DNA of 64,000 bases, from contig JAWKXB010000001.1 of NCBI GenBank assembly GCA_041397225.1, positions 431,391-495,390 of the forward strand. The letters are read 5' to 3'. This DNA is from Paracoccaceae bacterium. GTDB lineage: Bacteria > Pseudomonadota > Alphaproteobacteria > Rhodobacterales > Rhodobacteraceae. The translations under genes were made by a program, and so were the position numbers. The notes beneath the pieces were generated by a model that saw only the letters and a program-made list of their open reading frames with translations, was not told the DNA's origin and searched no databases. Position 1 is the first letter of the stretch. The number at the start of each line of letters is the position of its first letter. Positions 1,065 through 61,123 of this stretch are shown piece by piece.

Positions 1065-1111
1065 GTTTTCAGTTCACTCCCTGGTCCACGCGGACATGCG
1101 GTTCTTGAACG

Positions 1112-1615: not shown

Positions 1616-1651
1616 TGCGACCTCCCTGAGTATCGAGTGAACGATCGGGCC

Positions 1652-2620: not shown

Positions 2621-2723
2621 TTGGTCCTCCCTTTGGCTTTTCAATGTGCAGCGGGAGTGTCCCGCTGGTGGTGAGACCGTTCTTGGCGCGGTCTTTGCAA
2701 TCTTTGTCGTTCCGCAACACCCT

Positions 2724-3581: not shown

Positions 3582-3593
3582 TTCGGTCTCTCC

Positions 3594-5261: not shown

Positions 5262-5288
5262 GAGTTTTCCTAGCCGAGCTGAATTGAT

Positions 5289-7489: not shown

Positions 7490-7528
7490 TACGAAATCCT
7501 GTCGTTACGGGTTTTCCTGCGCGCCTGA

Positions 7529-9280: not shown

Positions 9281-9307
9281 TTTCGTCCTCGTGATGTCCG
9301 TTGGAAT

Positions 9308-10096
9308 TCAGCCGGCCATGCTTTTCAGCGAGCCGAGAGTCTCTAGTCTCGTCCATGTCTTGCTGATGTGGTCGTGCAGCCGCATCGTGTGTTCCCGCAC
9401 CCGACGGGATGCGAGGTCTGCGTCCCTCGCCATCAGCGCGTCGATGATCTGCATGTGATCGGCAACCGAACGGCGGGCACGGTCGCTTTCGCCCATCGCC
9501 CGCCGCCGCACTGCCTGCATATGGGTGAACAGGCCGTCCGCGGTCGTGCGCAGAAGCGAGCAGCCGGAAAGCTCAAGTATGGTCTGATGGAATTTGATGT
9601 TGGCGTCCGAATACTCCTCGATATCCGCCCGCTCCACATCGCTGCTGTGCTTGATCGCGAAGTTCCGCAATGCCTGAAGGTCGTGTTCGCTGGCGTTCTC
9701 GGTCGCCAGGCGCGCGGCCATGCTCTCGAGCGCGGCCCAGGTCACGACCATTTCAAGAATCTCTTCGCGCGACTTGCGGCAGACGAAGACGCCCTTGCGC
9801 GGAAGGATCTCGATCAGCCCGTCCTGCGCCAGCCGCGCCAGCGCCTCGCGGATCGGCGTCCTTGAAATCCCCAACCGCTCCGCCATCTGCCGCTCATCCA
9901 GACGGAGGTCGGCGTCGGGCTTGTAGATATCCATTTCCAGTATCGCGGCGCGGAGCACCTTGAAGGTGTGATCCTTCAGCGTGAAGTTCTCAGCGATGGG
10001 GCTAAGCTTGTCGCCGATCGACACCTGCCACGTCCTCCCACGGTACGTCGCGTCCATCATCGAGCCAGCGGAGCGCGTTCGTATGTGGTATACCAT
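9308..10096 (-). CDS. GntR-family transcriptional regulator (FadR/FCD subfamily)
   Basis: The wHTH is LDERQMAERLGISRTPIREALARLAQDGLIEILPRKGVFV, followed by an all-helical FCD-like C-terminus. The ATG at 10096 lies inside a palindromic operator, so the real start may be ATG 10060 or 10057. The gene ends 27 nt upstream of oxc. Confidence 0.85.
   Translation of the reverse strand: MVYHIRTRSAGSMMDATYRGRTWQVSIGDKLSPIAENFTLKDHTFKVLRAAILEMDIYKPDADLRLDERQMAERLGISRTPIREALARLAQDGLIEILPRKGVFVCRKSREEILEMVVTWAALESMAARLATENASEHDLQALRNFAIKHSSDVERADIEEYSDANIKFHQTILELSGCSLLRTTADGLFTHMQAVRRRAMGESDRARRSVADHMQIIDALMARDADLASRRVREHTMRLHDHISKTWTRLETLGSLKSMAG
10081..10095. promoter_or_regulatory. Candidate GntR operator, copy 1 (GTATGTGGTATACCA; core palindrome TGGTATACCA)
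   Basis: Perfect 10-bp palindrome fitting the FadR-subfamily consensus t.GT.n.AC.a. The 15-mer is repeated in inverted orientation at 10171-10185. Confidence 0.6.
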
Positions 10097-10154
10097 ACAC
10101 CTCGCGTCTTAACCGTCAAACCATTTCTTCTCCTTTGTTTCCTCGCAAAAAAGG

Positions 10155-10185
10155 TTGACAGCCGATGTTCTGGTATACCACATAC
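10155..10185. promoter_or_regulatory. Candidate promoter -35 (TTGACA, 10155-10160) plus GntR operator copy 2 (TGGTATACCACATAC, 10171-10185)
   Basis: Exact reverse complement of the 10081-10095 15-mer. It sits 10 nt downstream of a consensus TTGACA and upstream of the isochorismatase-sucCD-like operon. Confidence 0.55.
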
Positions 10186-10216
10186 CACCTAGATTTCGTT
10201 CCGGGGGACATGCGAT

Positions 10217-10759
10217 TTGCTGATCAGGGCAAACGATTCGGCGCTCATCGTCATCGATATGCAGGAGCGTTTGGTTCCCGCCATGCAGGCCCCCGCCCGC
10301 ACCATCCGCAACACCAGGCTGCTGCTTCATGCCGCTGCGAAAACCGGCGTGCCCGCGCTGCTGACGGAACAGTACCCGCAAGGGCTGGGCCCCACCGTTC
10401 CCGAGATCAGGAAAGCAGCAGGCGACAGCACTATCCTGCCGAAGATGCATTTTTCATGCATGGAGGATCAGGGCTTTGCTGCTGCGTTCCGCGCTCTCGA
10501 CCGGCGTCAGGCGATCCTGACCGGGATGGAGGCGCATATATGCGTCGTGCAGACTGCCGCCAGCCTGGTCGAAGCGGGATTCGACGTGTTCGTCGTGTCT
10601 GACGCGACAGCCTCAAGAACCATCGAAAGCGAACAGGCCTGCCTTGCCCGGCTCGGTGCGGCTGGCGTAAGCATCGTCACGACCGAGATGGTGATCTTCG
10701 AATGGCTGGGGCAGGCTGGCACCGAAGCCTTCAAGGAAATGCTGCCGCTGATAAAGTGA
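10217..10759 (+). CDS. Isochorismatase-family hydrolase
   Basis: 180 aa, ALIVIDMQERLV...ILTGMEAHICVVQTAASL (catalytic Cys region). TTG start with a GGGGGA SD. Confidence 0.8.
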   Translation: MLIRANDSALIVIDMQERLVPAMQAPARTIRNTRLLLHAAAKTGVPALLTEQYPQGLGPTVPEIRKAAGDSTILPKMHFSCMEDQGFAAAFRALDRRQAILTGMEAHICVVQTAASLVEAGFDVFVVSDATASRTIESEQACLARLGAAGVSIVTTEMVIFEWLGQAGTEAFKEMLPLIK

Positions 10760-23282: not shown

Positions 23283-23717
23283 CTACCCAAGTTCGATCCG
23301 CTCGCATACGATGACCAAGGTCTCGATCGCGACCTCGTTGCCGGTGGCGGCCAGCATCGGTCCTGCATACTTGGCGGGCCAGGCCTCAAAGAGGTTCCAG
23401 CGCATCACTTCCGCCCGCGCCTCGTCCAGAAGGATGATCGACACGCCGCGCCGTTCGATCTGACCGTCCACGACCTGCTTGCGCCACTGCCAGATGCCGT
23501 TCGACCCGGTTATGCCCCGCTTGAGCGTGACGTCCCCGAACTTGTGCAGGCCGGGGATTTTCCGAACGGACGGGTTCACATCGTTTCCGGCGCGGTACTC
23601 GATGACCTCGGTTTCGGAATCGAGGCCGGATACCTCGGAAAACGCGCCGTTTCCGACGCCATCGATCTCGACGATGAAGTTGTAGTTCCCGACGGGGTCT
23701 GTCGCGCGACGGGGCAT
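23283..23717 (-). CDS. Phage tail tube family protein (T4 gp19 / eCIS tube-like), orphan
   Basis: 144 aa from ATG 23717 (AAGGGAGG SD): MPRRATDPVGNYNFIVEIDGVGNGAFSEVSGLDSETEVIEYRAGND...VTLKRGIT...WPAKY...VAIETL. This is the typical pattern of the 'conserved hypothetical phage tail region protein' family. Confidence 0.75.
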   Translation of the reverse strand: MPRRATDPVGNYNFIVEIDGVGNGAFSEVSGLDSETEVIEYRAGNDVNPSVRKIPGLHKFGDVTLKRGITGSNGIWQWRKQVVDGQIERRGVSIILLDEARAEVMRWNLFEAWPAKYAGPMLAATGNEVAIETLVIVCERIELG

Positions 23718-23824
23718 GTTCGGCCTCCCTTTTTTGCTCGGCAAGTCTAGCGGTTTTCGCGACCCCGCGCGAGAGGCGGGCGAAATCGGGTGCTGCTTCG
23801 GCGCGCATTTGATAGACTCGGTCC

Positions 23825-24217
23825 ATGGCACGCGCGCCGAAAACGCCCCGAAAGACGACGGATCCGATGGTGATCCTCGACGTCGAACTGCGCGACCGCG
23901 TTCTTTACCTGCGCCTTGTCAATCGCGATGACCGTCCGGTGCGCGATGTCGTCGTCGCATTCCGGCGCAAGCTGATGGGGCTTGGCGGATCGGTCGATAT
24001 CGCCGCTCTGCCGATCTGGAAAAGGCTGACATTCATGCCGCCCGGCAAGGCGATCGAGGTGCCGCTTGACCGGGTCGAAGTATTCCTTGCGAACGATCGC
24101 GGCACACCGCTTGAGGCGACGATCCGCTACACCGATGCCGACGGCTCAGCCGCTTTAGCGACGATCACGCATGATTTCGGCGCATATCGCGACTTTCCGG
24201 GCATCATCTGTCGCTGA
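23825..24217 (+). CDS. Hypothetical protein, predicted beta-rich
   Basis: 130-aa ORF divergent from the tail-tube gene. No recognisable motif. The start could also be the internal Met (MVILDVEL...). Confidence 0.45.
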   Translation: MARAPKTPRKTTDPMVILDVELRDRVLYLRLVNRDDRPVRDVVVAFRRKLMGLGGSVDIAALPIWKRLTFMPPGKAIEVPLDRVEVFLANDRGTPLEATIRYTDADGSAALATITHDFGAYRDFPGIICR

Positions 24218-24917
24218 GGCCGCCCCGCCCTAGATATGCGGCGAGCGCGGGGGGCGGATCGGCGAAAAGCGCTGCGGTCGATCGCGGCGGGTGCGCCTTG
24301 CCCTCAGCGACAAGAATCGTCTGGTCGGCAAGGCGGTGGGCGTCATCCGGGTCATGGCTGACCATCAGCACGGTCGCACCGGTTTCGCTGGCGATCCCGG
24401 CGACCAGGGCCAGCATCTCAGCCTTTAGGGCGGGGCCAAGGGCAGAGAACGGTTCATCCAGCAGCATGAGCGGCCGGGCGCGCAGAAGCGTGCGGGCCAG
24501 CGCCACGCGGCTTTGCTGTCCACCGGACAGTGTCGCCGGCTTGCGGCCTTCCAACCCGGCAAGCCCGGTACGGCGCAGCGCCTCGTCGACCGACGCTTGT
24601 TGCGCTGCCGAAAGCCGGAGGTCGGCTCGGAGCCCGAGACCGACATTCTGCCCAACGGTGAGGTGCGGGAAGAGGTTCTGATCCTGAAACAGGATGGAAA
24701 GCGGCCTTTCGCCCGGCGCCGTGTCCGTGATGTCCTCGTCGTTCCAGAGAACACGACCCGAGGCGGCCGCGAAGAAGCCCGCGATCACCGACAGAAGCGT
24801 CGATTTGCCCGCACCCGAAGGGCCGATCACCGCGGTCAGCGCGCCCGCCGCGACGGAAAAGTCCGCTGTCAGCCGGAAATCGTCCTGCGTGATGACAAGG
24901 TTTTCAAGCGTCAGCAT
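24204..24917 (-). CDS. thiQ: Thiamine ABC transporter ATP-binding protein
   Basis: 237 aa. Walker A GPSGAGKST, signature LSGGQQSRVALAR, Walker B LMLLDEP. Last gene of a TPP-riboswitch-led operon. Confidence 0.85.
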   Translation of the reverse strand: MLTLENLVITQDDFRLTADFSVAAGALTAVIGPSGAGKSTLLSVIAGFFAAASGRVLWNDEDITDTAPGERPLSILFQDQNLFPHLTVGQNVGLGLRADLRLSAAQQASVDEALRRTGLAGLEGRKPATLSGGQQSRVALARTLLRARPLMLLDEPFSALGPALKAEMLALVAGIASETGATVLMVSHDPDDAHRLADQTILVAEGKAHPPRSTAALFADPPPALAAYLGRGGLSDR

Positions 24918-26451
24918 CGGCGCGGCCTCCTCTGTCGAAAGCCCAGAACAGAAGCAGGCTCAACGCCAGCAGCAGCACCGCCGCAGCGGCGGCATCCGCC
25001 ATCCGGTAGGCGCCCATCAGCCGGTAGAGCTGAAGTGGAAGCGTCGTCGTTTCACCATCGGCGAAAAGCGCGATGACACCGAGATCGCCCATAGACAGCG
25101 CGGCCGCCAGTCCACCGGCGAAGCCCAGCGGGCGCCGCAGCCTTGGCAGGGTCAGGTACCTAAGCCTAGCGCGCCCCCGCAGCCCAAGGCTTTGCGCAAG
25201 ACGGCCATAACCCGTCTCAAGGTCGCGAGCCGCCGGGATCAGCGCGCGCAGACAAAAGGGGAGCGCCATCGCGGCATTGACGACGACCGTCACCGGAAGC
25301 GCCAGCGAAGCCGGACTCGCCATCGGTCGCAGGATCAGAAAGAGTCCGGTCCCCAGCACCAATGACGATGCCACGATGGGCAACATTCCGACCAGTTCGA
25401 ACAGCTTGCCGCGCACGGCCGCGAGTGCGAGCGGCAGCGCGAGGATGAGAGCAAGTGCTGTCGACCCTGCTGCAACCGCGAGAGAGCGGAGCGCCGCCAG
25501 CCACACCGATGCGGGCAGCGACGCGACTCCCGGCAGGCCGGCCATCACCACTGCCGCGAGCGGAGCGATCAGGAACCCAGCCGCCAGAATGAGGAAAAGA
25601 CCGTCTTGCAATCGTAGCAGCCTTGCGCCGGCGTCCCAGCGCGCCACTGGCCGATCCAATCCCGCGCCGAACGCCGCCGGGATCGCGAACCGCGTGGCCA
25701 GCAGAATCGCCGCAGCGCACAGCATTAGCTGGAGCGTCGCCATGGTGGCCGCGCGGCCCGGATCGAAATCGAAGCGGAATGCCTGGTAGATGGCAAGCTC
25801 AACGGTCGTTGCCTTCGGTCCTCCGCCAAGGGTCAGTGCGACGGCAAAGCTCGTCAGGCAGATCAGGAAGATCGTGACGAAGATGCCGGGCGCCAGCGCA
25901 CGCAGCATCGGACGCTCAAGAAGACACATGATCTCGGATGGGCCGAGACCAAGCGACGCGGCAAGGCGGAACCGTTCCGTGGGGATCGCGAGCCAGCCTT
26001 GCAGAAGAAGGCGCACCGCCAGCGGCAGGTTGAAGAAGACATGCGCGAGAACGACGCCTTCAAAGCCGTAAATGGACACCCGGCCCAGCCCCAGTGCGGC
26101 AAGTCCGTCGTTGAGCACCCCGGCCCGCCCGAAGATGGCCAGGATACCCATGACGGCGACGATCACCGGCAGGATGAACGGCGCGCCGAGAAGCGTGATC
26201 AGTATCCCGCGCCCCGGAAAGCGCCGACGCGCCAGCGCGCGCGCGACTGGAACAGCCAGAACGAGACTGACCAGAGCCGAAACCAATGCCTGCGTCACGG
26301 TGAACCGCACCGCCGCCCAGTCGGCAGGTCCAAGCGCCGCGAACCCATCGGCGTGCCAAAGGACGGCGCCAAGTGTCCCGAGTACCAGCGCAAGCACCAA
26401 CCCTGCGGCGGCAATCCCGCCAGGGTTCAGCGGCTGAGCGCGGCTTGCCAT
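24904..26451 (-). CDS. thiP: Thiamine ABC transporter permease (duplicated)
   Basis: 515 aa, about 12 TM segments, two permease halves. It sits between thiB and thiQ with overlapping stops and starts. Confidence 0.85.
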   Translation of the reverse strand: MASRAQPLNPGGIAAAGLVLALVLGTLGAVLWHADGFAALGPADWAAVRFTVTQALVSALVSLVLAVPVARALARRRFPGRGILITLLGAPFILPVIVAVMGILAIFGRAGVLNDGLAALGLGRVSIYGFEGVVLAHVFFNLPLAVRLLLQGWLAIPTERFRLAASLGLGPSEIMCLLERPMLRALAPGIFVTIFLICLTSFAVALTLGGGPKATTVELAIYQAFRFDFDPGRAATMATLQLMLCAAAILLATRFAIPAAFGAGLDRPVARWDAGARLLRLQDGLFLILAAGFLIAPLAAVVMAGLPGVASLPASVWLAALRSLAVAAGSTALALILALPLALAAVRGKLFELVGMLPIVASSLVLGTGLFLILRPMASPASLALPVTVVVNAAMALPFCLRALIPAARDLETGYGRLAQSLGLRGRARLRYLTLPRLRRPLGFAGGLAAALSMGDLGVIALFADGETTTLPLQLYRLMGAYRMADAAAAAVLLLALSLLLFWAFDRGGRADADA

Positions 26452-27416
26452 TCGGCCAATGCCTCATCCCGGATCTTCGCCGCTTCGCCTGCCGGATAGA
26501 AAAGCACCTTCTCGGGCGCGATCAGCGTCTCGAACTCTGTCGGCAAGCCGCCCGGCGGGGTGACGGCCGGGTACATCCAGTTGGTTTCCGGAATCACCTT
26601 CTGGAAATCAGCCGAGATGACGAAGGACAGAAACCGGTCGGCAAGCTCACCCTCGTCCGACGAGGCGACCTTGGCTGCAACTTCGACCTGAAGATAGTGG
26701 CCCTCAGCAAACGCGGCAGCGGCCTTGCTGCCGTCGCCTTCGGCGATAAGGTGATAGGCGGGCGACGTCGTGTAGGACAGGACCATGTCCGCCTCGCCTT
26801 CAAGGAACATGCCGTAGGCTTCGGACCATCCCGGCGTCACGGTGACGATGTTGCCGGCCAGCGCTTCCCAGATGTCGCTTGCGCGTTCGCCATAGGCGGA
26901 CTTGACCCACAGAAGAAGCCCCAGTCCGGGCGTCGATGAACGAGGATCTTCGATGACGATCCGGAGGTCGGAAGCCGCCAGAGCCTCGAAATCCGCTGGA
27001 ACGCTCTCGATCTTCGTCTTGTCGTAGACAAAGGCGAAGTAGCCCCAATCATAGGGAACAAAGACCGGATCGTCCCATGCGAGCGGCAGGTCGTACTCAA
27101 CATCGCCAAGCCCGTGATCGGCGAAAAGACCGCTCTCGGCTGCAGCATCCGTGAGGTTGGTATCGAGGCCGAGCACGACATCGGCATCGGTATCGGCCCC
27201 CTCAAGCAGAAGCCGCGACAGAAGCGCCGCCCCGTCCCCCGAGGCAACGAACTTCAGATCGCAGCCGCAATAGCTTTCGAATGCCGCCTCCACCCGCGGC
27301 CCCGGCCCCCATTCGGAAACGAAGCTGTCATAGGTGTAGACAGTGAGGACAGGTTTGTCCGCAGCGCCCGCTGCCGACGCGCAAAGCAGACCCGCGATCA
27401 TCAGGGAGTGTCTCAT
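26427..27416 (-). CDS. thiB: Thiamine ABC transporter periplasmic binding protein
   Basis: 329 aa. Signal peptide MRHSLMIAGLLCASAAGAADKP, GGAGGA SD, immediately 3' of a TPP riboswitch. Confidence 0.85.
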   Translation of the reverse strand: MRHSLMIAGLLCASAAGAADKPVLTVYTYDSFVSEWGPGPRVEAAFESYCGCDLKFVASGDGAALLSRLLLEGADTDADVVLGLDTNLTDAAAESGLFADHGLGDVEYDLPLAWDDPVFVPYDWGYFAFVYDKTKIESVPADFEALAASDLRIVIEDPRSSTPGLGLLLWVKSAYGERASDIWEALAGNIVTVTPGWSEAYGMFLEGEADMVLSYTTSPAYHLIAEGDGSKAAAAFAEGHYLQVEVAAKVASSDEGELADRFLSFVISADFQKVIPETNWMYPAVTPPGGLPTEFETLIAPEKVLFYPAGEAAKIRDEALAEWQAALSR

Positions 27417-27589: not shown

Positions 27590-28408
27590 TCAGGCCGGGT
27601 CAGGCGCCCCGAGACTGCGCGAAACCTTTGCCGCAGCCTCCCTGACGAGCGCGCCGATCCGGTCGATCTCGCTTTCGGTCATGCGGTGGGTCGGGCCGGA
27701 AACCGAAATCCCCGCGACAGCTTCGCCATGCGCGTTGAGGATGGGTGCGGCGACGCAGCGCATGCCGGTGTTCTTTTCCTCGTCATCGACGGCAAAGCCC
27801 CTGACGCGCGCGACCTGAAGCTCCTCCTTCAGCCGCTCGACCGTGCCGATCGTCTTGGCGGTGAACCGCTCCAGGGGGTTGTTCCGCAGGAACCGGTCGA
27901 TGCGCCCCTCGTCGTAAAGACTCAGGAGCGCCTTGCCGATCCCCGAGGCGTGCATCGGCGACAGCGTTCCCGGCGGAAAGAACGCGCGGATCGATTCCTG
28001 CGTCTCGATCTGGCTGACGAACATTATATCGCCATCCTTCTCGATCCCGAGATTGGAGGTTTCACCCGTCGCGTCGGTCAACTCACGCATGACCGGGCGG
28101 CTCTTGTCGGCAACGCCGCTGCGGCGCAGGAAAGCGGAACCCAGACGAAACGCCGTGGGGCCGATGTGCCAGCCTTGGGTCCGCGGGTCGGTCTCGACGA
28201 ATTCCCGCGCTTCGAGCGTAGAAAGCACACGATACATCGTCGCCGGCGACTGGTTCAGTGCTTCGGATACCTCCGTGAGCGTCAGCCCGTTGCCCGATGC
28301 CAGCGCCTCAAGAACGGTGAGAGCCCGGTCCAGCGACTGGATCGTTGTCTCGGACGGCTCATGGTCGAAACCTTTTGGTCGACCCTTGCGTCGCGCGGCA
28401 GGTTGCAT
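27590..28408 (-). CDS. bhcR: IclR-family transcriptional regulator (BhcR-type)
   Basis: ATG 28408 gives MQPAARRKGRPKG...IQSLDRALTVLEALASGNGLTLTEVSEALNQSPATMYRVLSTLE (IclR HTH) followed by an effector domain. Divergent from bhcA. Confidence 0.85.
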   Translation of the reverse strand: MQPAARRKGRPKGFDHEPSETTIQSLDRALTVLEALASGNGLTLTEVSEALNQSPATMYRVLSTLEAREFVETDPRTQGWHIGPTAFRLGSAFLRRSGVADKSRPVMRELTDATGETSNLGIEKDGDIMFVSQIETQESIRAFFPPGTLSPMHASGIGKALLSLYDEGRIDRFLRNNPLERFTAKTIGTVERLKEELQVARVRGFAVDDEEKNTGMRCVAAPILNAHGEAVAGISVSGPTHRMTESEIDRIGALVREAAAKVSRSLGAPDPA

Positions 28409-28522
28409 TCTTCCATCCCGGACAGGAAAACGAATACTCTTTCTGACTAAGCATGAAAAACAAGTCCGGCCAATGAAAAAATGCAAGAGATTGTAAAATA
28501 ACTAAAATCTGTCATCCTCACA

Positions 28523-28545
28523 TTTTTGAAAAAACATTTCAAAAA
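28523..28545. promoter_or_regulatory. Inverted repeat TTTTTGAAA-aaaca-TTTCAAAAA in the AT-rich bhcR/bhcA control region (candidate BhcR operator)
   Basis: Perfect 9-bp arms with a 5-bp spacer, inside a roughly 110-bp AT-rich island (28441-28550) in an otherwise GC-rich window. Confidence 0.5.
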
Positions 28546-28605
28546 AATTGGGAATCGCTGCGGCTTGCTCTATGGTCAGTGCAACCGTCACAGGAGGGCA
28601 CGAAC

Positions 28606-29793
28606 ATGAGCTTCCAGAACCCCGTCTTCATCCCCGGCCCCACCAACATGCCCGAGGTCGTCCGTCAGGCCTGCTACATGCCGACGATCGACCACCGTTC
28701 ACCGGTCTTCGGCAAGATCCTCAATCCGTGCCTTGAAGGTGTCCGGAAGGTTCTGAAATCCGACAGCGCAAAGATCTTCATCTTCCCCTCGACCGGCACG
28801 GGCGGCTGGGAAACGGCGCTGACCAACACCCTTTCGCCCGGCGACAAGGTGCTTGCGGCGCGGAACGGCATGTTCTCCCACCGGTGGATCGACATGTGCC
28901 AGCGGCACGGACTGACGGTCGACGTGGTTGAGGCCCCGTGGGGTGCCGGCATCCCCGCCGACCGCTACGAGGAGATCCTGACCGCGGACAAGAACCACGA
29001 AATCAAGGTGGTTCTGGCCACGCACAACGAAACTGCAACCGGCGTCAAGTCCGACATCGCCGCCGTACGCCGCGCGATGGACAAGGCCAAGCATCCCGCG
29101 ATGCTCTTTGTCGATGGCGTCTCTTCCATCGCGTCGATGGATTTCCGCATGGACGAATGGAGCGTCGACATCGCCGTGACAGGGTCGCAAAAGGGCTTCA
29201 TGCTGCCCGCCGGCCTCGCCATTGTCGGGTTCTCGGAAAAGGCGATGTCGGCGGTCGAGAGCGCCAAGCTTCCGCGCACCTTCTTCGACGTCCGCGACAT
29301 GGCCAAGGGCTATGCCAACAACGCCTTCCCCTACACGCCGCCGGTCGGCCTCATGAACGGGCTGAAACTGTCGCTCGACATGCTGCTGTCCGAGGGGCTG
29401 GACAACGTCTTCGCGCGCCACACCCGCATCGCCGAAGGCGTGCGCCGCGCGGTTGATGCCTGGGGGCTGGAGCTGTGCGCCAAAAGCCCGCAGGTCTATT
29501 CCGACACCGTGAGTGCCATCCGCACGCCCGAGGGCTTCAACGCGACCGACATCGTCACCCGTGCAGCCAGCGACTACGGCATGGCTTTCGGCGTCGGACT
29601 TGGCGAGGTTGCGGGCAAGGTGTTCAGGATCGGCCATCTGGGCATGCTCACCGACGCGCTGATGCTGTCGGGGCTGGCAACGGCCGAGATGGTGATGGTA
29701 GACCTTGGATTGCCGGTCAGGCTCGGCTCGGGCGTCGCGGCGGCTCAGGAATTCTACCGGCACGGCAGCGCAAAGAAAAAGGCGGCCGCGTGA
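28606..29793 (+). CDS. bhcA: Class V aminotransferase; aspartate-glyoxylate aminotransferase (BhcA-type)
   Basis: ATG 28606 (AGGAGGG SD) gives MSFQNPVFIPGPTNMPEVVRQA.... The PLP-Lys region is TGSQKGFMLPAG. First gene of the bhc-type operon. Confidence 0.8.
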   Translation: MSFQNPVFIPGPTNMPEVVRQACYMPTIDHRSPVFGKILNPCLEGVRKVLKSDSAKIFIFPSTGTGGWETALTNTLSPGDKVLAARNGMFSHRWIDMCQRHGLTVDVVEAPWGAGIPADRYEEILTADKNHEIKVVLATHNETATGVKSDIAAVRRAMDKAKHPAMLFVDGVSSIASMDFRMDEWSVDIAVTGSQKGFMLPAGLAIVGFSEKAMSAVESAKLPRTFFDVRDMAKGYANNAFPYTPPVGLMNGLKLSLDMLLSEGLDNVFARHTRIAEGVRRAVDAWGLELCAKSPQVYSDTVSAIRTPEGFNATDIVTRAASDYGMAFGVGLGEVAGKVFRIGHLGMLTDALMLSGLATAEMVMVDLGLPVRLGSGVAAAQEFYRHGSAKKKAAA

Positions 29794-30758
29794 TGAAGGG
29801 CGCAAGTGAGATGTACATTCCGACCCTTGCCGACATGCTCGTCGCGCACGAACGCATCAAGCCGCATATTCATCGCACGCCTGTCCTGACCTCTCGCTTC
29901 ATCAACGACCTGACTGGGGCGGAGTTGTTCTTCAAGTGCGAGAACCTGCAAAAGGCGGGGGCGTTCAAGGCGCGCGGGGCGTCGAATGCGGTTTTCGGAC
30001 TGACGGACGAGCAGGCCAGTAAGGGTGTCGCGACCCATTCCAGCGGCAATCATGGCACGTGCCTCAGCTATGCCGCCGGGCGCAGGGGCATTCCCTGCAC
30101 CGTCGTGATGCCTCGCACAGCGCCGCAGGCCAAGAAGGATGCCGTGAAGGGTTATGGGGGCAAGGTTGTGGAGTGTGAACCCTCGACCACCAGCCGTGAG
30201 GCGGTCTTTGCCGAGGTCGTCGCCAAGACCGGCGCCGAGTTCGTGCATCCTTACAACGATCATCGCGTGATCGCCGGGCAAGGCACGTGCTCAAAGGAAA
30301 TGATCGAGCAGGTGGCCAGTCTTGATGCCGCGATCGCGCCCATCGGCGGCGGCGGCATGGTGTCGGGCACGTGCCTTACGCTCTCCAATCTCGCGCCGAA
30401 CGTGAAGATCTATGCCGCCGAGCCGGAGCAGGCCGATGATGCCTATCGGAGTTTCAAGGCCGGCCACATCATCGCCGACGACGCGCCCGAAACGGTTGCC
30501 GACGGCCTCAAGGTGCCGCTCAAGGACTTGACCTGGCACTTCGTCAAGAATCATGTGACTGACATCCTCACCGCTTCCGAGGAAGAGATCGTCGATGCGA
30601 TGAAACTCATCTGGAAGCGCATGAAGATCGTCATGGAACCGTCGAGCGCCGTGCCGCTCGCGACGATCCTGAAGAACAAGAACGTCTTTGCCGGCAAGCG
30701 TGTCGGCGTCATCGTTACCGGCGGCAATGTCGATCTCGACAAACTGCCCTGGATGTAA
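29793..30758 (+). CDS. bhcB: Serine/threonine-dehydratase-fold PLP enzyme; beta-hydroxyaspartate dehydratase (BhcB-type)
   Basis: The start overlaps the bhcA stop (TGATG); ATG 29811 is an alternative. The PLP-Lys motif is FFKCENLQKAGAFKARGA, with HSSGNHG nearby. The track ORF start at 29475 lies inside bhcA. Confidence 0.8.
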   Translation: MKGASEMYIPTLADMLVAHERIKPHIHRTPVLTSRFINDLTGAELFFKCENLQKAGAFKARGASNAVFGLTDEQASKGVATHSSGNHGTCLSYAAGRRGIPCTVVMPRTAPQAKKDAVKGYGGKVVECEPSTTSREAVFAEVVAKTGAEFVHPYNDHRVIAGQGTCSKEMIEQVASLDAAIAPIGGGGMVSGTCLTLSNLAPNVKIYAAEPEQADDAYRSFKAGHIIADDAPETVADGLKVPLKDLTWHFVKNHVTDILTASEEEIVDAMKLIWKRMKIVMEPSSAVPLATILKNKNVFAGKRVGVIVTGGNVDLDKLPWM

Positions 30759-30773
30759 GCCAAGGAGGCCAAA

Positions 30774-31937
30774 ATGAACGCTCCCGTGAACCTCAACGCC
30801 CTTGAAGTCGGCTACGACATTCCGGCCAAGCCCGGCATGGACGAAAAGGACATCCAGACGCCTTGCCTGATACTCGACCTCGACGCGCTTGAGCGCAATG
30901 TCAAGAAGATGGGCGACTTCGCCAAGAAGATGGGTGTGCGCCATCGGTCGCATGGCAAGATGCACAAGTCCGTGGATGTGCAGAAGCTTCAGGAAAGCCT
31001 TGGCGGCGCCTGCGGCGTCTGCTGCCAGAAAGTTTCCGAGGCGGAAGTCTTTGTGCGCGGCGGCATCAAGGATGTGCTGGTGTCCAACCAGGTCCGCGAT
31101 GCGGCAAAGATCGACCGTCTCGCGCGCCTGCCCAAGCTTGGCGCGCGCATCCTCGTCTGCGTCGACGATGCGGATAACGTGAAGGATCTCTCGGCGGCGG
31201 CGGAAAAGCATGGCACCGAAATCGAGTGCCTCGTGGAGATCGACTGTGGCGCAGGCCGCTGCGGCGTCACCACGACGCAGGATGTCGTGAACATCGCCAA
31301 GGCCATCGACGCCGCGCCGGGCCTGAAGTTCGGTGGCATCCAGGCCTACCAGGGCGCGATGCAGCATCTCGACAAGTATGAGGACCGCAAGGCCAAGCTC
31401 GACATCGCCATCGACATGGTGCGTGACGCGGTCCAGGGGTTGAAGGCGCAGGGCCTTGACTGCGACATTGTCGGCGGCGGTGGCACCGGAAGCTACTATT
31501 TCGAAGGCAATTCAGGTGTTTACAACGAGCTTCAGTGCGGCTCCTATGCCTTCATGGATGCCGACTACGGCCGCATCCTCGACAAGGATGGCAAGCGGAT
31601 CGACCAGGGCGAATGGGAGAATGCGCTTTTCATCCTGACGTCGGTCATGTCCCATGCCAAGGACAACAAGGCCATCGTCGATGCCGGCCTCAAGGCCCAG
31701 TCGGTCGATAGCGGCCTGCCGTTCGTCTATGGCCGCGACGATGTGAAGTACGTCAAATGCTCGGACGAACATGGCGTCGTCGAGGATCCGAACGGGGTGC
31801 TGAAGATCAACGAAAAGCTCCGTCTGGTGCCGGGTCATTGCGATCCGACCTGCAATGTTCATGACTGGTATGTCGGCGTCCGGAACGGCAAGGTTGAAAC
31901 CGTCTGGCCGGTCTCGGCCCGCGGCAAGGCGTATTGA
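30774..31937 (+). CDS. bhcC: Alanine-racemase-fold / D-threonine-aldolase-like PLP enzyme; beta-hydroxyaspartate aldolase (BhcC-type)
   Basis: 387 aa. TPCLILDLDALERNVKKM...HGKMHKS (PLP-Lys) and a C-terminal D-serine-dehydratase-like domain (VPGHCDPTCN). Confidence 0.8.
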   Translation: MNAPVNLNALEVGYDIPAKPGMDEKDIQTPCLILDLDALERNVKKMGDFAKKMGVRHRSHGKMHKSVDVQKLQESLGGACGVCCQKVSEAEVFVRGGIKDVLVSNQVRDAAKIDRLARLPKLGARILVCVDDADNVKDLSAAAEKHGTEIECLVEIDCGAGRCGVTTTQDVVNIAKAIDAAPGLKFGGIQAYQGAMQHLDKYEDRKAKLDIAIDMVRDAVQGLKAQGLDCDIVGGGGTGSYYFEGNSGVYNELQCGSYAFMDADYGRILDKDGKRIDQGEWENALFILTSVMSHAKDNKAIVDAGLKAQSVDSGLPFVYGRDDVKYVKCSDEHGVVEDPNGVLKINEKLRLVPGHCDPTCNVHDWYVGVRNGKVETVWPVSARGKAY

Positions 31938-32025
31938 GGCCGCCCCCGCATCCGTCCCGAACGCGTAGGGCTTCTGTAGGTTATCTGTAGCTACAGAGCG
32001 CCCGCCCCTTTAGGAAAGACTTGAC

Positions 32026-32988
32026 ATGCTCATCGTTCCCGAAAACCTCATCGCGGGGCTTGTCACCGCTGACGACGCCTTCGCCGCAATCGAGGCGACC
32101 TTCGCCGCCATGGCGCGGGATGAGGCCTACAACTTCCCTGTCGTGCGCGAAGCCCTGGGCGAGGGGCGGCAATACGGGTTCAAGTCGGGCCTCGACCGGA
32201 CAGGATCGGTGCTTGGCGTCAAGGCGGGGGGCTACTTTCCCGGCAATGCCGACAAGGGCATCACCAATCACCAGTCAACGGTCTTTCTTTTCAACCCCGA
32301 CACCGGGCGTCCGACCGCGATGGTCGGCGGCAACCTTCTGACGGCCTTGCGCACCGCGGCCTCGTCGGCAATTTCCATCGACCGGCTGGCGCGGAAGGAT
32401 GCCAGCGTGCTCGGCATGGTCGGGGCGGGCCATCAGGCGGGGTTCCAGCTTCGCGCCGCCGCCCGCGTGCGCAAGTTCGAACGGGTCGTGGCCTGGAACC
32501 TGCATCCCGAAATGCTGCCGAAGCTCGGCGAGGTCGCGGAAGAGCTGGGCCTGCCGTTCGAGGCGGTGAGCCTCGATCAGCTCGGCGCCGAGGCGGACGT
32601 GATCATCACCATCACCTCCTCGCCGAAAGCCTCGCTGATGGACGGCCATATCCGCCCCGGCACCCACCTTGCCTGCATGGGCACCGACACCAAGGGCAAA
32701 CAGGAGGTGGAGCCCGCCCTGTTCTCGCGCGCCCGCATCTTCACCGACGAGGTTGCGCAATCCATTTCGATCGGCGAGGCGCAGCACGCCATCGCTGCCG
32801 ACCTGATCAGGGAAAAAGACATCACCCCGATCGGCAAGGTCATCGCCGGGATGGACCAGGGCCGGCGCAGCCAAGACGAGATCACGCTTTTCGACGGCAC
32901 CGGCGTGGGGCTTCAGGACCTGGCCGTGGCGAACGAGGCGGTCCGGCTGGCCGTGGAAAAGGGCATCGCCGTCGAGGTGGACGTCTAA
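32026..32988 (+). CDS. bhcD: Ornithine cyclodeaminase/mu-crystallin-family reductase; iminosuccinate reductase (BhcD-type)
   Basis: 320 aa. OCD-family layout with LTALRTAASSAISI and the Rossmann motif MVGAGHQAGFQL. Last gene of the operon. Confidence 0.8.
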   Translation: MLIVPENLIAGLVTADDAFAAIEATFAAMARDEAYNFPVVREALGEGRQYGFKSGLDRTGSVLGVKAGGYFPGNADKGITNHQSTVFLFNPDTGRPTAMVGGNLLTALRTAASSAISIDRLARKDASVLGMVGAGHQAGFQLRAAARVRKFERVVAWNLHPEMLPKLGEVAEELGLPFEAVSLDQLGAEADVIITITSSPKASLMDGHIRPGTHLACMGTDTKGKQEVEPALFSRARIFTDEVAQSISIGEAQHAIAADLIREKDITPIGKVIAGMDQGRRSQDEITLFDGTGVGLQDLAVANEAVRLAVEKGIAVEVDV

Positions 32989-33058
32989 CCACAGCGGAGT
33001 GTGATGTGACTGGGCCGCCGCGCCGCGGACCCGATCCCGGTGGCGTGGCCAGCTCGGC

Positions 33059-34678
33059 TCAATCGTCCCAGACAAACCCTGCCGGAAACTCTTCCGGCAG
33101 CGCGCAGAGCGCCAGCACGCCGCCCTTTGCCCCGACCCTGCGGCAGACCCTGCCATCGGCTTCGGCCATGCGGTAGAAACGGTCGAGGCCGTCTTCGGTC
33201 ATGGCCTCGGGCCAGTAATGCGCGAAGAGAAGCCAGATCGGCCCGGTCCCGGCAAGTTCGGTGGCCGCGCGTTCGTAGTAGGCTTCGCTCGTCAGGTGGT
33301 TTTCTCTGCCGCGCGCCTGCGTCGTCCAGGACGACATCGTTGTTTCATGGCGCAGCAGGCCGAGCGTCCGCGGCGCGCCGCGCGCGATCAGTTCGGGCCG
33401 AAGGGCGCGCACGCTGGGCTGGGCGCCGTAGTAGATCCAGAGTGGCGCATCGTACTTCGCCACGCGGTCGAGATGCGCGGAGACCTCGGTGTTTTCCAGA
33501 TCGGCGGCGCGAAGGACCGCCGCCGCGCCGATGGCGAGCGTGATGGCCGCTATCGCTGGTGTGAGCAATGAGAGTCTAATCCGCCTGAAAACCGCCTGCA
33601 GGATCGCGACTACCCCAAGCGCGAAGCTCGGAACAGCGAAGGGCGCGAGGAACATGAAATGGCGGGTCGAGGCGATCGGCAGGAGATGTGCCGCGTTCAA
33701 CACCAGAATCGCCGCGCCGCCGACCAGAAGCCCGCCCGCCAGCAGTTTCGACCTGCGGAAATAGGCGGGCAAGCCGACGAGCGCGATGAAGGCGAAGATC
33801 GCATAGAGGGCCGGCAGCCCTGAAATCAACCCGGCACGGAAGAGAATGGCGTCCAGATAGGACGGGGCAACCATGAGGAAGAGAACCCGGAGGATGTTCT
33901 CAGCCGCCTCGGCGTTCCCGGCTGACCGCAGGTTCCAAAGATCGACGAACGTCGTCGCGTAGCGGTCCGCATAGGCGCTTTGGTCCGGCATGGTCACGAT
34001 GCGGGTGAAGAAAAGGTAGAACAGGGCGCTCAGGCCGAGGGCAGGCAGGGCAAGGCCTGCAAGCCTTGCAGTTTCGCGCGATGCGCCCGGGCCGTTGCGC
34101 AAAAGCGTGGCGACGGCAAGCCCCCCGCCGGCGGCGACCAGAAGCACCGGCGCGAGGAAGGAAAAGACGCAGGCCAACAGGCTGGCGGCCAAAAAGGCCA
34201 GAACGCCCGTCACGTCCGGCTTTCGCAGACAGCGCGCGGCGGCCGCGATCAGAAGGCAGGCCGCCAGAAATTCGTTGACGTAGTTCTTGGGGTTGGTGGT
34301 GAACAGCAGCGTTTCCTGCGGCGAAGCCATCAGGATCAGGATGAGCGCGATCTCCGCGCTGCGGAAACTTGGCCGCATGACGCGGTAGAGGAGGTAGTAG
34401 CCGAGGCAGGCGGCCATCGCCGCAAGGATACGGACGCCGGTGAACCGGGCGAGCCCTTCGGCGCCGAAGATGCGCGAGACAAGGTCAAGCTCCATGACCG
34501 AACCCAATGCCGTCGCCTGCTCAAAATAGGGCAGCGGACGGAAATACTGCGCAAGGGAATCCAGCGGGAAGTTCGACATCAGCATGGCCTGATCGAAACC
34601 GGGATCGCGCCCGTCCGCGATCGCGATGACGCGGCTTGCGATGATAAGCGCCAATGCCCCGAGAGGCAGGCGTGACAT
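33059..34678 (-). CDS. Polytopic integral membrane protein with a C-terminal soluble domain (function unknown; GT-C-like topology is only a guess)
   Basis: About 540 aa, at least 10 hydrophobic segments, and a roughly 150-aa hydrophilic C-terminus. The start is taken at MSRLPLGALALII (34678); ATG 34705 is also possible. Confidence 0.6.
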   Translation of the reverse strand: MSRLPLGALALIIASRVIAIADGRDPGFDQAMLMSNFPLDSLAQYFRPLPYFEQATALGSVMELDLVSRIFGAEGLARFTGVRILAAMAACLGYYLLYRVMRPSFRSAEIALILILMASPQETLLFTTNPKNYVNEFLAACLLIAAAARCLRKPDVTGVLAFLAASLLACVFSFLAPVLLVAAGGGLAVATLLRNGPGASRETARLAGLALPALGLSALFYLFFTRIVTMPDQSAYADRYATTFVDLWNLRSAGNAEAAENILRVLFLMVAPSYLDAILFRAGLISGLPALYAIFAFIALVGLPAYFRRSKLLAGGLLVGGAAILVLNAAHLLPIASTRHFMFLAPFAVPSFALGVVAILQAVFRRIRLSLLTPAIAAITLAIGAAAVLRAADLENTEVSAHLDRVAKYDAPLWIYYGAQPSVRALRPELIARGAPRTLGLLRHETTMSSWTTQARGRENHLTSEAYYERAATELAGTGPIWLLFAHYWPEAMTEDGLDRFYRMAEADGRVCRRVGAKGGVLALCALPEEFPAGFVWDD

Positions 34679-34859
34679 ATTGCGTTCAAGATGGTCTGGA
34701 ACCAATTTGACACCTTCGACCAGCGCGACACATGCCCGCGGCAGAGGTTTGATCGCAGGTCAGGGGTCTTTCGGCAAGATCGTGCCTTCGCCGGAAGGCA
34801 GACCATGCTTGAGCGGAGGCCCCGGCTTCGCTATGCCGCTAGCTTAAAGGAGCAGCAGC

Positions 34860-44047: not shown

Positions 44048-44176
44048 GTTCGGCGGCCCAAGCACTTTCCCTGCCGCCGCGCTCATCCTCGGCCTCTCAG
44101 AGATCCTCGGCGCGCGCGGCGTTGCGTTGGTGCGTCCTGCATGGCGCCCGCATGATCTTTCGGCAAGATTGCAGAT

Positions 44177-45678
44177 GTGACACGGGCCCCGTTTCCTGAG
44201 CGGCGGCGTCACACCGATCCTCCGATGGTCAGGATCGCGAAGCGCGGGTCCGTCGCCAGGCGCCGGTGGCTCTCCGGCATTGCCCTTGAACGCGCGGTTG
44301 AACGAGACTTCCGCGTGGAGTGGGCCGAGATTTACGCCGCCGTCGCCAAGGCGGGGCTTGTCGCGGTCCCGATCAACTTTCGGCTCACCGGATCGGAGGC
44401 GCGGTTTATCTGCGAGGATTGCGCGGTGGCGGCGGTCATCGTCGAGGACGCTCTTGCCGGGATCGCTGAAAATGTACGCGACACGCTTCCCGTTCCGTCG
44501 GGTCGATTCATCCGTATCGGCGACAGCGCCCCGCCCGGTTGGCGCGCATATGAAACGCTGATTGCGGACGCATCCGATACCGAGCCGGCGTGGCCGTCAC
44601 GCCCGAGGACCCCTGGTGCCTCATGTACACCTCCGGAACAACGGGCAACCCCAAGGGCGCGATCCGCAGCCATCGCGGCATGGCGATGGTCGCTTTCATG
44701 ACCGATGTCGAGCTTGGCCTGAAGCGCAAGGACGATGCGCTTCTCGTCATGCCGATGTGCCATGCCAACTCGCTCAACTTCTTCACCGCCTTCCTTTATA
44801 TCGGCGCCCGCGTGACGATCTTCTCGCGCCCAAGCTTCGATCCGGCACTGTGCCTGCGCACGATCGGCGAGATGGGGGTGACGTTCTCGTCGCTGGTGCC
44901 GACGCACTATGCGATGATGCTTGACGTACCCGAAACCGAGCGGGGCGACGCCGGCTTCGGGCAGGTCGAAAAGCTGATGATCTCCTCGGCCCCCGCGCGC
45001 GTGGAAACGAAGCGGGCGGTGATGGAGATGTTCCCGAATTCCGGCCTCTTCGAGCTTTATGGCTCCACCGAGGCGGGATGGGTGACGATGCTGCATCCGG
45101 ACGAGCAGTTCGACCACCTGGGTACCGTGGGACGCGAGGTCGTGGGGTCCGCTCCGATCCGGCTCTTGGACGAAGGCGGCAACGAGGTGCCCGATGGTGA
45201 GGTCGGCGAGCTCTACTCCTGCGGTCCCTACGCCTTCGAGGGCTACTGGAACCTGCCCGCGAAGACCGCCGAAGCGTTCCGGGGAAACTACCTGTCGGTG
45301 GGCGACATGGCGCTGCGCGACGCCGACGGATTCATCAGGCTCATCGACCGCAAGAAGAACATGATCATCTCGGGCGGCGAGAACGTCTATCCGACCGAGG
45401 TCGAGGCTGTGCTCGCGCAGCATCCCGAGGTGAAGGACGTAGCCGTGATTGGCCAGCCCGACGCCAAGTGGGGTGAGCGCGTCGCGGCAGCGGTGGTCCT
45501 GCGCGAAGGCTCGGCGCTGACGGCGACCGACCTGATCGCCTGGTCCAAGGAACGGCTGGCCGGACACAAGCGCCCCCGCGCGATCACGTTCCTACGGTCC
45601 GACGAAATGCCACGCAACGCTACCGGCAAGATTCTTCACCGCGTTCTCAGGGACATGCTTGCTGAGCGTGCGTCATGA
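44177..45678 (+). pseudogene. AMP-dependent acyl-CoA synthetase/ligase, disrupted (frameshift near 44570-44592; 5' region scrambled)
   Basis: ORF 44177-44701 ends in ...GLVAVPINFRL...ETLIADASDTEPA. The family sequence then continues in another frame from 44590 (VAVTPEDPWCLMYTSGTTGNPKGAIRSH...). No intact N-terminus or start codon. N-terminal-like fragments (LSEILGAR..., SFGKIAD...) lie in different frames at about 44090-44200. Confidence 0.7.
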
Positions 45679-45718
45679 TGAGCCGCCTACGGGACAAGCC
45701 ACATTCAGGAGACACCCG

Positions 45719-47266
45719 ATGACTGATCAGCAGGACCTGAACCGCGACGAGGACAGCGTCGCCGCCTGGATCGCGCATGTACTTCAAGCGCGTGGGATCG
45801 ACCGCATCTTCGGCCTGCAAGGCGGGCATATACAGCCGATCTGGGACAGCCTCGCCAAGCGCGGCATCCGCATCGTCGATGTGCGCGATGAGGGCGCAGC
45901 AGTGCACATGGCCCATGCCCATGCGGAACTCACCGGCCAGCTTGGCGTCGCGATGGTGACGGCCGGGCCCGGTGTCACCAACTGCGTTACCGGGATGGCC
46001 AACGCCTCGCTCGCCCGTGCGCCGGTCCTTCTGATCGGCGGCTGCACCTCGCGCCCGCAAGCCAACATGGGGCCGTTGCAGGACATCCCGCATGTGGAGA
46101 TCCTGCGCCCGGTGACGCGCTATTGCCGGACAGCTCGCGTCCCCGAACAGGTCCTGCGCGAACTTGACGAGGCGATCGCCCGCGCCGAGGGGGACATGGG
46201 CGAACCCGGCCCCGTCTATATCGAGGTGCCGACCGATGTGCTGCGCACCCGCGTGTCGGCAAACCTTATTCCCGGGGACTGGATAGCCCCGAAACCGCAG
46301 CGCCGACCGCTGCCGGACCCGGCCCGCGTGGCCGAGGCGGCGCAGGCGATGCGTGAAGCACGGCGCCCGCTCGTCGTCAGCGGCCGGGGCGCGCGCGGGG
46401 CCGGCAAGGCGCTGACGCACTTCCTCGATGCGACCGATGCCCTCTATCTCGACACGCAGGAAAGCCGCGGACTGGTCCCGGCCGATCATCCGTCGGTCGT
46501 CGGCGCGGTGCGTGCCGCCGCGATGGCGCAGGCCGACCTCGTCATCACCCTCGGCCGCAAGCTCGACTACCAGCTCGGCTTTGGCTCTCCCGCCGTATTT
46601 CCCGAAGCGCGGTTCCTGCGCATCGCCGACACCGCGGGCGAACTCGTGGACAACCGTCGCGGAACGCCTGAGATTTTCGCCTCGGTCCAACTTGCCCTCG
46701 ATGCGTTGACCGAAGCGCTCGGCAACAATGCCGGCACCCGTGACGAAGGCTGGCTTGAAAGTCTGCGCAAGAAACACAGGGAACGCATCACCAAGGGCGA
46801 GAACGCAACCGCTCCGCAGGCCGGACCGGATGGCAAGATCCATCCGATGGCGATCTTCGACGCTTTGCGGCAGGTGGCCGATCCCGACTACATCGCCGTC
46901 GCAGATGGCGGCGACCTTCTCAGCTTCGCGCGCGTCGGTCTTGCCGCGCGGACCTATCTCGATGCGGGCGCCTTCGGTTGCCTTGGTGTCGGCGTGCCTT
47001 TCGCCATCGCCGCCGCTTTGGCTTTTCCCGATCGGCAGGTCGTCTCGGTCAACGGCGACGGCGCCTATGGCATCAACGCGATGGAGATCGACACCGCCGT
47101 CCGCCATGGCGCGAAGGCCCTCTTCATCATCTCCAACAACGCCGCCTGGAACATCGAGCGCTTCGATCAGGAGTTCAACTACGGCGGCCGGGTCGTCGGC
47201 ACCACGCTCCGCCATTCGGACTATGCCGCGATGGCGCGCGCTCTGGGCGCGCACGGCGAACGGGTG
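45719..47266 (+). pseudogene. ThDP-dependent enzyme (acetolactate-synthase / 2-hydroxyacyl-CoA-lyase-like), 3'-truncated and fused in frame to the next fragment
   Basis: ATG 45719 (AGGAG SD). The ThDP motif [33 protein letters not shown] is present. The sequence stops looking like the family after ...[11 protein letters not shown], about 40-50 aa short of a usual C-terminus. Confidence 0.6.
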
Positions 47267-48079
47267 CTCGAAGCGCTTTACCCGACCGATGTGCCCGTCC
47301 CGCGGCCGGTGCTCTATCACGCCGATGCGAACCTTGTCAGCACACCCTTCTATTTGATGGAGCGGGTCGACGGCCGGCTCTTCACCGACATCTCGCTTGC
47401 AGAGCTTCCGGCCAGCGAGCGGCGCGGCATCTGGATGGCGGTGGCCGATGCAGTGGCGGTGATGCATGCTATCCGCCCCGATGCGGTGGGCCTTGGCGAT
47501 TTCGGCAGGCCCGGCAACTACTTCGAACGCCAGATCGCGCGCTGGGACCGGCAGTAACGGGCCTCCCCCTCGAGTCCGATCGGGTCGATCGAACGGCTCT
47601 ACGATTGGCTCGTCACGCATCAGCCTCCCGACGACGGGCTGGTCTCGCTCTGCCACGGCGATTTCCGGCTCGGCAATCTCATCTTCCATCCGACCCAGCC
47701 CCGGATCACGGCCATTCTCGACTGGGAGCTCTCTACCCTCGGCCATCCGCTCGCCGATCTCGGCTTCTGCGCGATGCCTTGGCACACCGCGCCCGAGGAG
47801 TATGGCGGCCTGCTCGGCCTCGACCTCTCGGCGCTGCAATTGCCTGCCGAGGAAGAGTTCGTGTCGCGCTATATGATGGCCTGCCCGTCCGCGCCGCCGC
47901 TCCTGCCTTTTCACAAGGCTTTCGCGCTCTTCCGGTTCGCGGTGATTTTCGTCGGCATCGCCGACCGGGCAAGGGCCGGCATCGCGGCCGATCCAGAGGC
48001 CGCGACCCTCGCCCCTCTCGCCGAACGGTTCGCTGAACGGGCGCTGGAAATCGCCTGGAACAGGCCTAACGCAGCGTGA
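47267..48079 (+). pseudogene. APH/ACAD10-like phosphotransferase fragment: 5'-deleted, with an in-frame TAA at 47555-47557
   Basis: It starts mid-domain ([37 protein letters not shown]). The TAA interrupts ...[16 protein letters not shown]..., where the family has Tyr as I recall. The same frame then continues IERLYDWL...LCHGDFRLGNLIFHP...ILDWELSTLGHPLADLG to stop 48079. Confidence 0.65.
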
Positions 48080-61042: not shown

Positions 61043-61108
61043 CAATTCCGCCCGCGTTCGAAGCCTGTTCCGAGAACAAAGGCTAGGAGATCGGGCATGA
61101 TCTTTGTA

Positions 61109-61123
61109 TTGAATGTTGGTCAA
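61109..61123. promoter_or_regulatory. LysR-type box TTGA-N7-TCAA (contains T-N11-A) between dmgdh and the LysR gene
   Basis: TTGAATGTTGGTCAA, a dyad in the 129-bp divergent region. Confidence 0.4.

Follow-up and report, generated by a model that had tools for sequence, protein, structure and literature searches.

A bhcR-bhcABCD locus of a Paracoccaceae bacterium that very probably encodes the beta-hydroxyaspartate cycle

In Paracoccus denitrificans, the bhcR-bhcABCD genes encode the beta-hydroxyaspartate cycle, which converts two glyoxylate into one oxaloacetate without loss of CO2, and growth on glycolate and on glyoxylate depends on the cluster (PMC11323563). The regulator BhcR is likewise required for growth on glycolate/glyoxylate and activates the Pbhc promoter; a palindromic BhcR site is located upstream of the bhcA -35 element, and a second, autoregulatory site near bhcR has been proposed (PMC11323563). 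The glycerate pathway (gcl, hyi, glxR, glxK) also brings glyoxylate into central metabolism, but its enzymes are unrelated, and one CO2 is lost for every two glyoxylate. Here, we analyze a bhc locus at positions 27590-32988 of a 64,000-nt stretch, hereafter the window, from a Paracoccaceae bacterium (assembly GCA_041397225.1, contig JAWKXB010000001.1, positions 431,391 to 495,390).

The locus comprises the same five genes as the P. denitrificans cluster in the same order and orientation, with bhcR on the minus strand, divergent from bhcA, bhcB, bhcC, and bhcD, which are all on the plus strand (Table 1). The host is another member of Paracoccaceae, and the genomic neighborhood differs from that in P. 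denitrificans. With a probability of about 95%, we consider the region to be a functional orthologue of the P. denitrificans bhcR-bhcABCD cluster, encoding the beta-hydroxyaspartate cycle; the gene identities, the gene order, and the conservation of both the active-site motifs and the operator positions are direct observations. All five open reading frames (ORFs) are long and intact, with the third-position GC (guanine plus cytosine) content being high, as in real genes; the GC content of the window is ∼63%. An initial annotation, made from the sequence alone, had placed the same five genes here and reported that the stop codon of bhcA overlaps the start of bhcB; we find the ORFs at those coordinates and the TGATG overlap at 29791-29795 (gTGATGaag).

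The start codon of bhcA is preceded by AGGAGG at 28592-28597, and the BhcA profile covers residues 1-394 of 395. The bhcR ORF can be extended to TTG 28486, while the BhcR profile begins at residue 4 of the version starting at ATG 28408. In BhcB, the model alignment starts only at residue 9, and we considered ATG 29811 as an alternative start. This candidate was rejected, as the N-terminus MKDxxEMYIP is conserved, being kept in homologues as MK(D/G)xxEMYIP, and several homologues lack the internal methionine; therefore, judging from these alignments, the overlapping ATG is likely to be the real start of bhcB. The intergenic gaps within bhcABCD are -1, 15, and 88 nt, and the four genes probably form a single operon.

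In order to assign the proteins, we used the NCBIfam equivalog models NF045640-NF045644, one per Bhc protein, with their curated cut-offs. All five proteins (5/5) pass their own Bhc model, while the next-best families score far lower and remain under their own cut-offs. BhcR scores 407.8 bits with NF045644 (cut-off 350), compared to 182, 160, 155, and 150 bits with the models of the regulators IclR, AllR, PcaR, and KdgR, each below the respective cut-off (380 for the IclR model and 406 for the AllR model). The scores are 753.8 bits for BhcA (cut-off 650, next family 182), 610.9 for BhcB (cut-off 550), 770.9 for BhcC (cut-off 690), and 555.8 for BhcD (cut-off 500), with the archaeal alanine dehydrogenase model yielding 194 bits for the latter. 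The next family of BhcB, threo-3-hydroxy-L-aspartate ammonia-lyase (PRK07048), reaches 370 bits, under its own cut-off of 452.

The Pfam domains agree with the families named in the initial annotation for all proteins: a helix-turn-helix of the IclR type (HTH_IclR) with IclR_C in BhcR, Aminotran_5 in BhcA, PALP in BhcB, Ala_racemase_N with D-ser_dehydrat in BhcC, and OCD_Mu_crystall in BhcD. BhcC is 79.8% identical to D-3-hydroxyaspartate aldolase (PDB 6QKB) across all 387 residues (E = 4.5e-214), and BhcD is 66.1% identical to iminosuccinate reductase (PDB 6RQA; E = 3e-130). Based on the PDB molecule names, we take both structures to be those of P. denitrificans enzymes. The identities to Paracoccus orthologues are 76-79% for BhcA, 75-76% for BhcB, and 51-52% for BhcR. 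The bhc assignment had been offered initially with low identity to the characterized enzymes as the sign that would speak against it; the five models and the two structures bear the assignment out.

The active-site motifs are conserved as well. The motifs around the lysine binding pyridoxal phosphate (PLP) are intact in BhcA (SQK, aligned with the Arabidopsis serine-glyoxylate aminotransferase 6PK1), in BhcB (AFKARG, aligned with SFK of the serine racemase 6LUT), and, in the alignment, in BhcC (HGKMHK). BhcD retains the GAGHQ Rossmann motif for dinucleotide binding. In these folds, both the PLP-lysine and the GAGHQ motif have catalytic roles.

To characterize the distribution of the system, we searched for BhcC relatives in one genome per species (185,579 species genomes). 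At least 588 genome loci encode one, the best being 89% identical and coming from a Paracoccaceae metagenome-assembled genome (MAG). Eighty of these loci were fetched for synteny counts. The arrangement with bhcR on one strand and bhcA, bhcB, bhcC, and bhcD following on the other was found in 60 of the 80, most others being cut by contig ends; hence the survey of synteny, which had been suggested together with the claim that the gene order matches the characterized cluster, yields the same order. On the other hand, 30 flanking window proteins share essentially no synteny with these 80 loci. Therefore, the five genes behave as a self-contained module, and the neighbors give no functional context.

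In a Neomegalonema MAG (7007-10223 of the locus), the 7 kb upstream of bhcBCD contain neither bhcA nor bhcR. In a Roseinatronobacter MAG (118-9745 of the locus), a BhcA paralogue is encoded downstream of bhcBCD; it is only 47% identical to the window BhcA, while BhcA orthologues are 61-87% identical.

Moreover, 91 RefSeq plasmid records match the region with nucleotide identity of ∼74-80%. Among the matching plasmid records, the 15 listed all carry the names bhcA, bhcB, bhcC, and bhcD, and three of them carry bhcR. The initial annotation remarked that pipelines usually mislabel these genes; this no longer holds, as RefSeq plasmid records bear the bhc names and dedicated NCBI models (NF045640-NF045644) exist. 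The system is thus already known, experimentally characterized, widespread, and automatically annotated. The window adds one more member of Paracoccaceae to many Alpha- and Gammaproteobacteria with carbon-conserving glyoxylate assimilation, a route relevant to marine glycolate turnover; beyond correct annotation, its significance is small.

The spacer between bhcR and bhcA (28409-28605, 197 bp) is AT-rich. We compared 66 orthologous spacers from ∼66 species, with the mean GC fraction of 0.42, using TGRAA-N5-TTYCA as the box and shuffled sequences for the expected counts. The window spacer contains a candidate proximal box, the perfect palindrome given in Table 1, which is enclosed in the perfect inverted repeat TTTTTGAAA / TTTCAAAAA with 9-nt arms (28523-28531 and 28537-28545) separated by 5 nt. 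This is the sole exact match to the box in the entire window, and one-mismatch matches occur at the chance level (4 found, 3.35 expected). The proximal box is centered 72 nt upstream of the ATG of bhcA, compared to ∼67-78 nt in most of the 66 spacers and a maximum of 93 nt. At this position, an exact box is present in 33 of the 66 spacers and a box with at most one mismatch in 50, versus 0.4 expected in shuffles. At a distal position, with the center mostly ∼140-165 nt upstream of the bhcA ATG, 35 of the 66 spacers have a box with at most one mismatch (0.6 expected).

Other parts of the spacer are also conserved. The alignment retains the half-site TGAAAAA, an A-tract 3' of the proximal box, and the columns TTGC and, 17 nt on, TA...T, which correspond to TTGGGA and TATGGT in the window. 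The two Paracoccus species sampled (L058 and L070) have half-sites TGGAA/TTCCA, whereas those of the window are TGAAA/TTTCA. The 5-N5-5 palindrome geometry of the window box is the same as that of the 15-bp operators of E. coli IclR and AllR, whose consensus is TGGAAATNATTTCCA.

As in P. denitrificans, where the second site is a proposal, a palindrome is found just upstream of the putative bhcA -35 element and a candidate second site near bhcR. A weak promoter of the sigma-70 type would probably drive transcription, with a predicted start near 28583; its -35 element is 6 nt downstream of the 15-bp IclR-type palindrome. When glyoxylate is present, BhcR at the proximal box would probably activate the bhcA operon, and the weaker second box near the bhcR start would confer autoregulation. 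A sigma-70 promoter scan of 28300-33300 yielded nothing at the threshold; weak hexamers are what an activator-dependent promoter would look like. The two-box layout is consistent with the model published for BhcR, in which the protein activates in response to glyoxylate and possibly represses its own gene, and the conservation of this layout across ∼66 species provides sequence-level support and precise mutagenesis targets for that dual model (PMC11323563). The spacer palindromes are a result that goes beyond the initial annotation, with modest comparative value.

BhcR has a fold in common with the E. coli regulators (E = 2e-30 for 2O99, the C-terminal domain of IclR, and 1e-28 for 1TF1 of AllR). 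In order to examine its effector pocket, we aligned it to the IclR effector domain 2O99 and compared the residues, in the E. coli IclR numbering, with Table 1 of PMC11323563. The pocket consists of Ser143, Ala146, Ser154, Gly160, Ile161, Asp212, Met220, Ser239, and Ser241. Eight of the nine residues are identical to the matching P. denitrificans BhcR signature, the exception being position 143, where P. denitrificans has Thr and the window protein Ser. The oxygen-binding residues Gly160, Asp212, Ser239, and Ser241 are the same as in IclR and AllR. Unlike these, BhcR of the window has the diagnostic Ile161 and polar or small residues at 143, 146, 154, and 220, and is devoid of the hydrophobic patch to which the methyl group of pyruvate binds. 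Also in contrast to IclR and AllR, BhcR of P. denitrificans activates rather than represses.

The enzyme activities, the induction by glyoxylate, and the activator mechanism are ascribed to the window locus by analogy with the work on P. denitrificans. On this basis, BhcA would convert aspartate and glyoxylate to oxaloacetate and glycine, and BhcC would join the glycine to a second glyoxylate, yielding erythro-3-hydroxyaspartate. The latter would be dehydrated by BhcB to iminosuccinate, which BhcD would reduce to aspartate with reduced nicotinamide adenine dinucleotide (NADH). Among the ∼60 window ORFs scanned, which leave a few short gaps, we found none encoding Gcl, malate synthase, tartronate-semialdehyde reductase, or glycolate oxidase (glcDEF), nor any other gene of the glycerate pathway; for the first three, this agrees with the initial annotation.

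Several points weigh against the locus being a functional orthologue of the P. denitrificans cluster. BhcA, BhcB, and BhcR have been compared with P. denitrificans only indirectly, via the profile hidden Markov models and orthologues from other Paracoccus. As no glcDEF genes are present among the scanned ORFs, the source of glyoxylate is not visible there. In the spacer, the distal box is degenerate, with two mismatches, in which it differs from P. denitrificans, and the promoter hexamers match 8 of 12 consensus positions, under the scan threshold of 9 of 12. Finally, in the scan of 28300-33300, where terminator-like sites occur at the chance level, the plus strand downstream of bhcD showed no canonical intrinsic terminator.

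Table 1. Positions of the bhc genes, the spacer elements, and other gene groups in the window (numbered from its first base)
Feature	Position	Strand	Basis or remark
bhcR, IclR-family regulator, 272 aa from ATG 28408	27590-28408	-	BhcR model and Pfam
bhcA, L-aspartate:glyoxylate aminotransferase, 395 aa	28606-29793	+	NF045640 and Aminotran_5
bhcB, beta-hydroxyaspartate dehydratase, 321 aa	29793-30758	+	NF045641 and PALP
bhcC, 3-hydroxy-D-aspartate aldolase, 387 aa	30774-31937	+	NF045642 and 6QKB match
bhcD, iminosuccinate reductase, 320 aa	32026-32988	+	NF045643 and 6RQA match
Proximal BhcR box (candidate), perfect palindrome TGAAAAAACATTTCA, TGAAA-AAACA-TTTCA, 15 bp	28527-28541	.	inverted-repeat search
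Distal BhcR-box-like site TGAAAAACAAGTCCG, 2 mismatches to TGRAA-N5-TTYCA	28454-28468	.	46-60 nt upstream of bhcR ATG
Conserved half-site TGAAAAA	28474-28480	.	columns ∼90-99% conserved, 66-spacer alignment
Putative bhcA promoter: -35-like TTGGGA (28548-28553), 17-nt spacer, -10-like TATGGT (28571-28576)	28548-28576	+	inferred
thiBPQ	24204-27416	-	bhc neighbor
TctA/B/C transporter (tctABC)	3-2644	-	oxalate cluster
Usp	2724-3581	-	oxalate cluster
fhs, formate-tetrahydrofolate ligase	3594-5261	-	926 bits
Fmt-family formyltransferase, Formyl_trans_N and Formyl_trans_C	5289-6218	-	between frc and fhs
frc, formyl-coenzyme A transferase	6215-7489	-	715 bits
oxc, oxalyl-coenzyme A decarboxylase	7529-9280	-	1000 bits
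GntR regulator	9308-10096	-	oxalate cluster

The same enzymes could also be fed mainly by glyoxylate derived from oxalate, via oxalyl-coenzyme A (oxalyl-CoA), or by other glyoxylate rather than that from glycolate, with oxalate being a physiologically relevant BhcR ligand. An oxc-frc-fhs cluster with a GntR regulator and a TctABC transporter is indeed encoded 18 kb upstream, and, as mentioned, glcDEF are missing from the scanned ORFs. Moreover, oxalate strengthens the binding of BhcR to DNA in vitro, an effect that has been dismissed only since P. denitrificans cannot grow on oxalate (PMC11323563). Still, we identified no candidate oxalyl-CoA reductase in the window, and Oxc and Frc alone produce formate and CO2, not glyoxylate. 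The oxalate cluster has no BhcR box nearby, the only exact one being that at bhc and the weaker matches not exceeding chance. Finally, the 80 related loci contain none of the three genes oxc, frc, and fhs at a distance of up to 8 kb from bhc, so the linkage is not conserved. Overall, we regard feeding by oxalate or another such source as unlikely. In its stronger form, with the cycle being the assimilatory arm of oxalate metabolism (oxalate to oxalyl-CoA to glyoxylate to the cycle), the idea is slightly less likely still; if it were true, the in vitro effect of oxalate on the binding of BhcR to DNA would be physiologically meaningful.

Much less probable is that the cluster catabolizes external 3-hydroxyaspartate as a nutrient instead of cycling glyoxylate. 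Judging by the reactions only, hydroxyaspartate could in principle be broken down by BhcC alone or by BhcB together with BhcD. However, no transporter gene is linked to the locus, the neighbors being thiBPQ and an uncharacterized membrane protein, and the regulator has the residues with which members of the IclR/AllR/BhcR group bind glyoxylate. The requirement of the P. denitrificans cluster for growth on glycolate and glyoxylate is also contrary to this explanation (PMC11323563). Another alternative is that four unrelated housekeeping enzymes of amino-acid metabolism are adjacent by chance: a serine-glyoxylate aminotransferase, a threonine/serine dehydratase, a D-threonine aldolase/D-serine dehydratase, and an ornithine cyclodeaminase. 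At the Pfam level, the families are indeed generic, and the nearest structures outside the Bhc proteins are those of a serine-glyoxylate aminotransferase from a plant, of serine racemases, of D-threonine aldolases, and of an archaeal alanine dehydrogenase, but this alternative can be set aside as hardly credible given the far higher scores with the Bhc-specific models, the generic ones staying under their own cut-offs, the recurrence of the five-gene arrangement in 60 of 80 loci amid unconserved flanking genes, and the distance of the aminotransferase-like paralogue in the Roseinatronobacter MAG from the BhcA orthologues (47% versus 61-87%).

The immediate neighbors are unrelated to the bhc cluster; in addition to thiBPQ, they include aroC, an S58 peptidase gene, and a peptide transporter of the ATP-binding cassette type. 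Convergent with bhcD, a gene at 33059-34705 (minus strand) encodes a very hydrophobic polytopic membrane protein of 548 aa, which matches neither a Pfam nor an NCBIfam family and of which no homologue is encoded beside bhc in the 80 related loci. The last codons of this gene contain a perfect 9-bp hairpin (33079-33100). Between the cytochrome bc1 genes and thiQ, at 23283-23831 (minus strand), we found a lone gene for a tail-tube protein similar to T4 gp19, or tube protein of a contractile injection system (PF06841, TIGR02241); we saw no further genes of a phage or an injection system in its vicinity.

The oxalate-degradation cluster occupies 3-10096 on the minus strand, and we found no evidence linking it to bhc. 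Its Fmt-family protein scores 133 bits with the methionyl-tRNA formyltransferase model (cut-off 201.5), and the gene has a 4-nt overlap with the stop region of frc. Divergent from the regulator of this cluster, the segment 10217-14041 (plus strand) encodes an isochorismatase-family hydrolase, a SucC/SucD CoA-ligase pair resembling a second copy (552.7 and 448.3 bits), and a protein of 358 aa without a family match. A CoA-ligase pair resembling these SucC/SucD-like proteins, with 46-48% identity, is also encoded downstream of bhcBCD in the Roseinatronobacter MAG (L018).

At 44156-47557 (plus strand), there is a gene pair that looks like it is decaying. The first gene, for an acyl-CoA synthetase, is missing the part for the N-terminus and is divided between two reading frames (44156-44698 and 44590-45678). 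Next comes the gene for a 2-hydroxyacyl-CoA lyase (NF058623, 967.7 bits); here, the match ends at model position 517 of 575, and the ORF runs on into an APH-family phosphotransferase fragment (residues 535-631).

At 57063-61123 (minus strand), the gene of an MttB-family (trimethylamine methyltransferase-like) protein adjoins that of an 834-aa fusion of the flavin adenine dinucleotide (FAD)-oxidase/GcvT type, which suggests a module for the demethylation of methylated amines. Finally, a LysR-family ORF in the region 61172-62576 (plus strand) stops after 201 aa, that is, about the first two-thirds of the LysR models of ∼300 positions, and is directly followed by an IS5-family transposase, the coding sequence of which occupies two frames (61774-62166 and 62187-62576). 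Probably, the regulator gene has been disrupted by the insertion of this IS5-family element.

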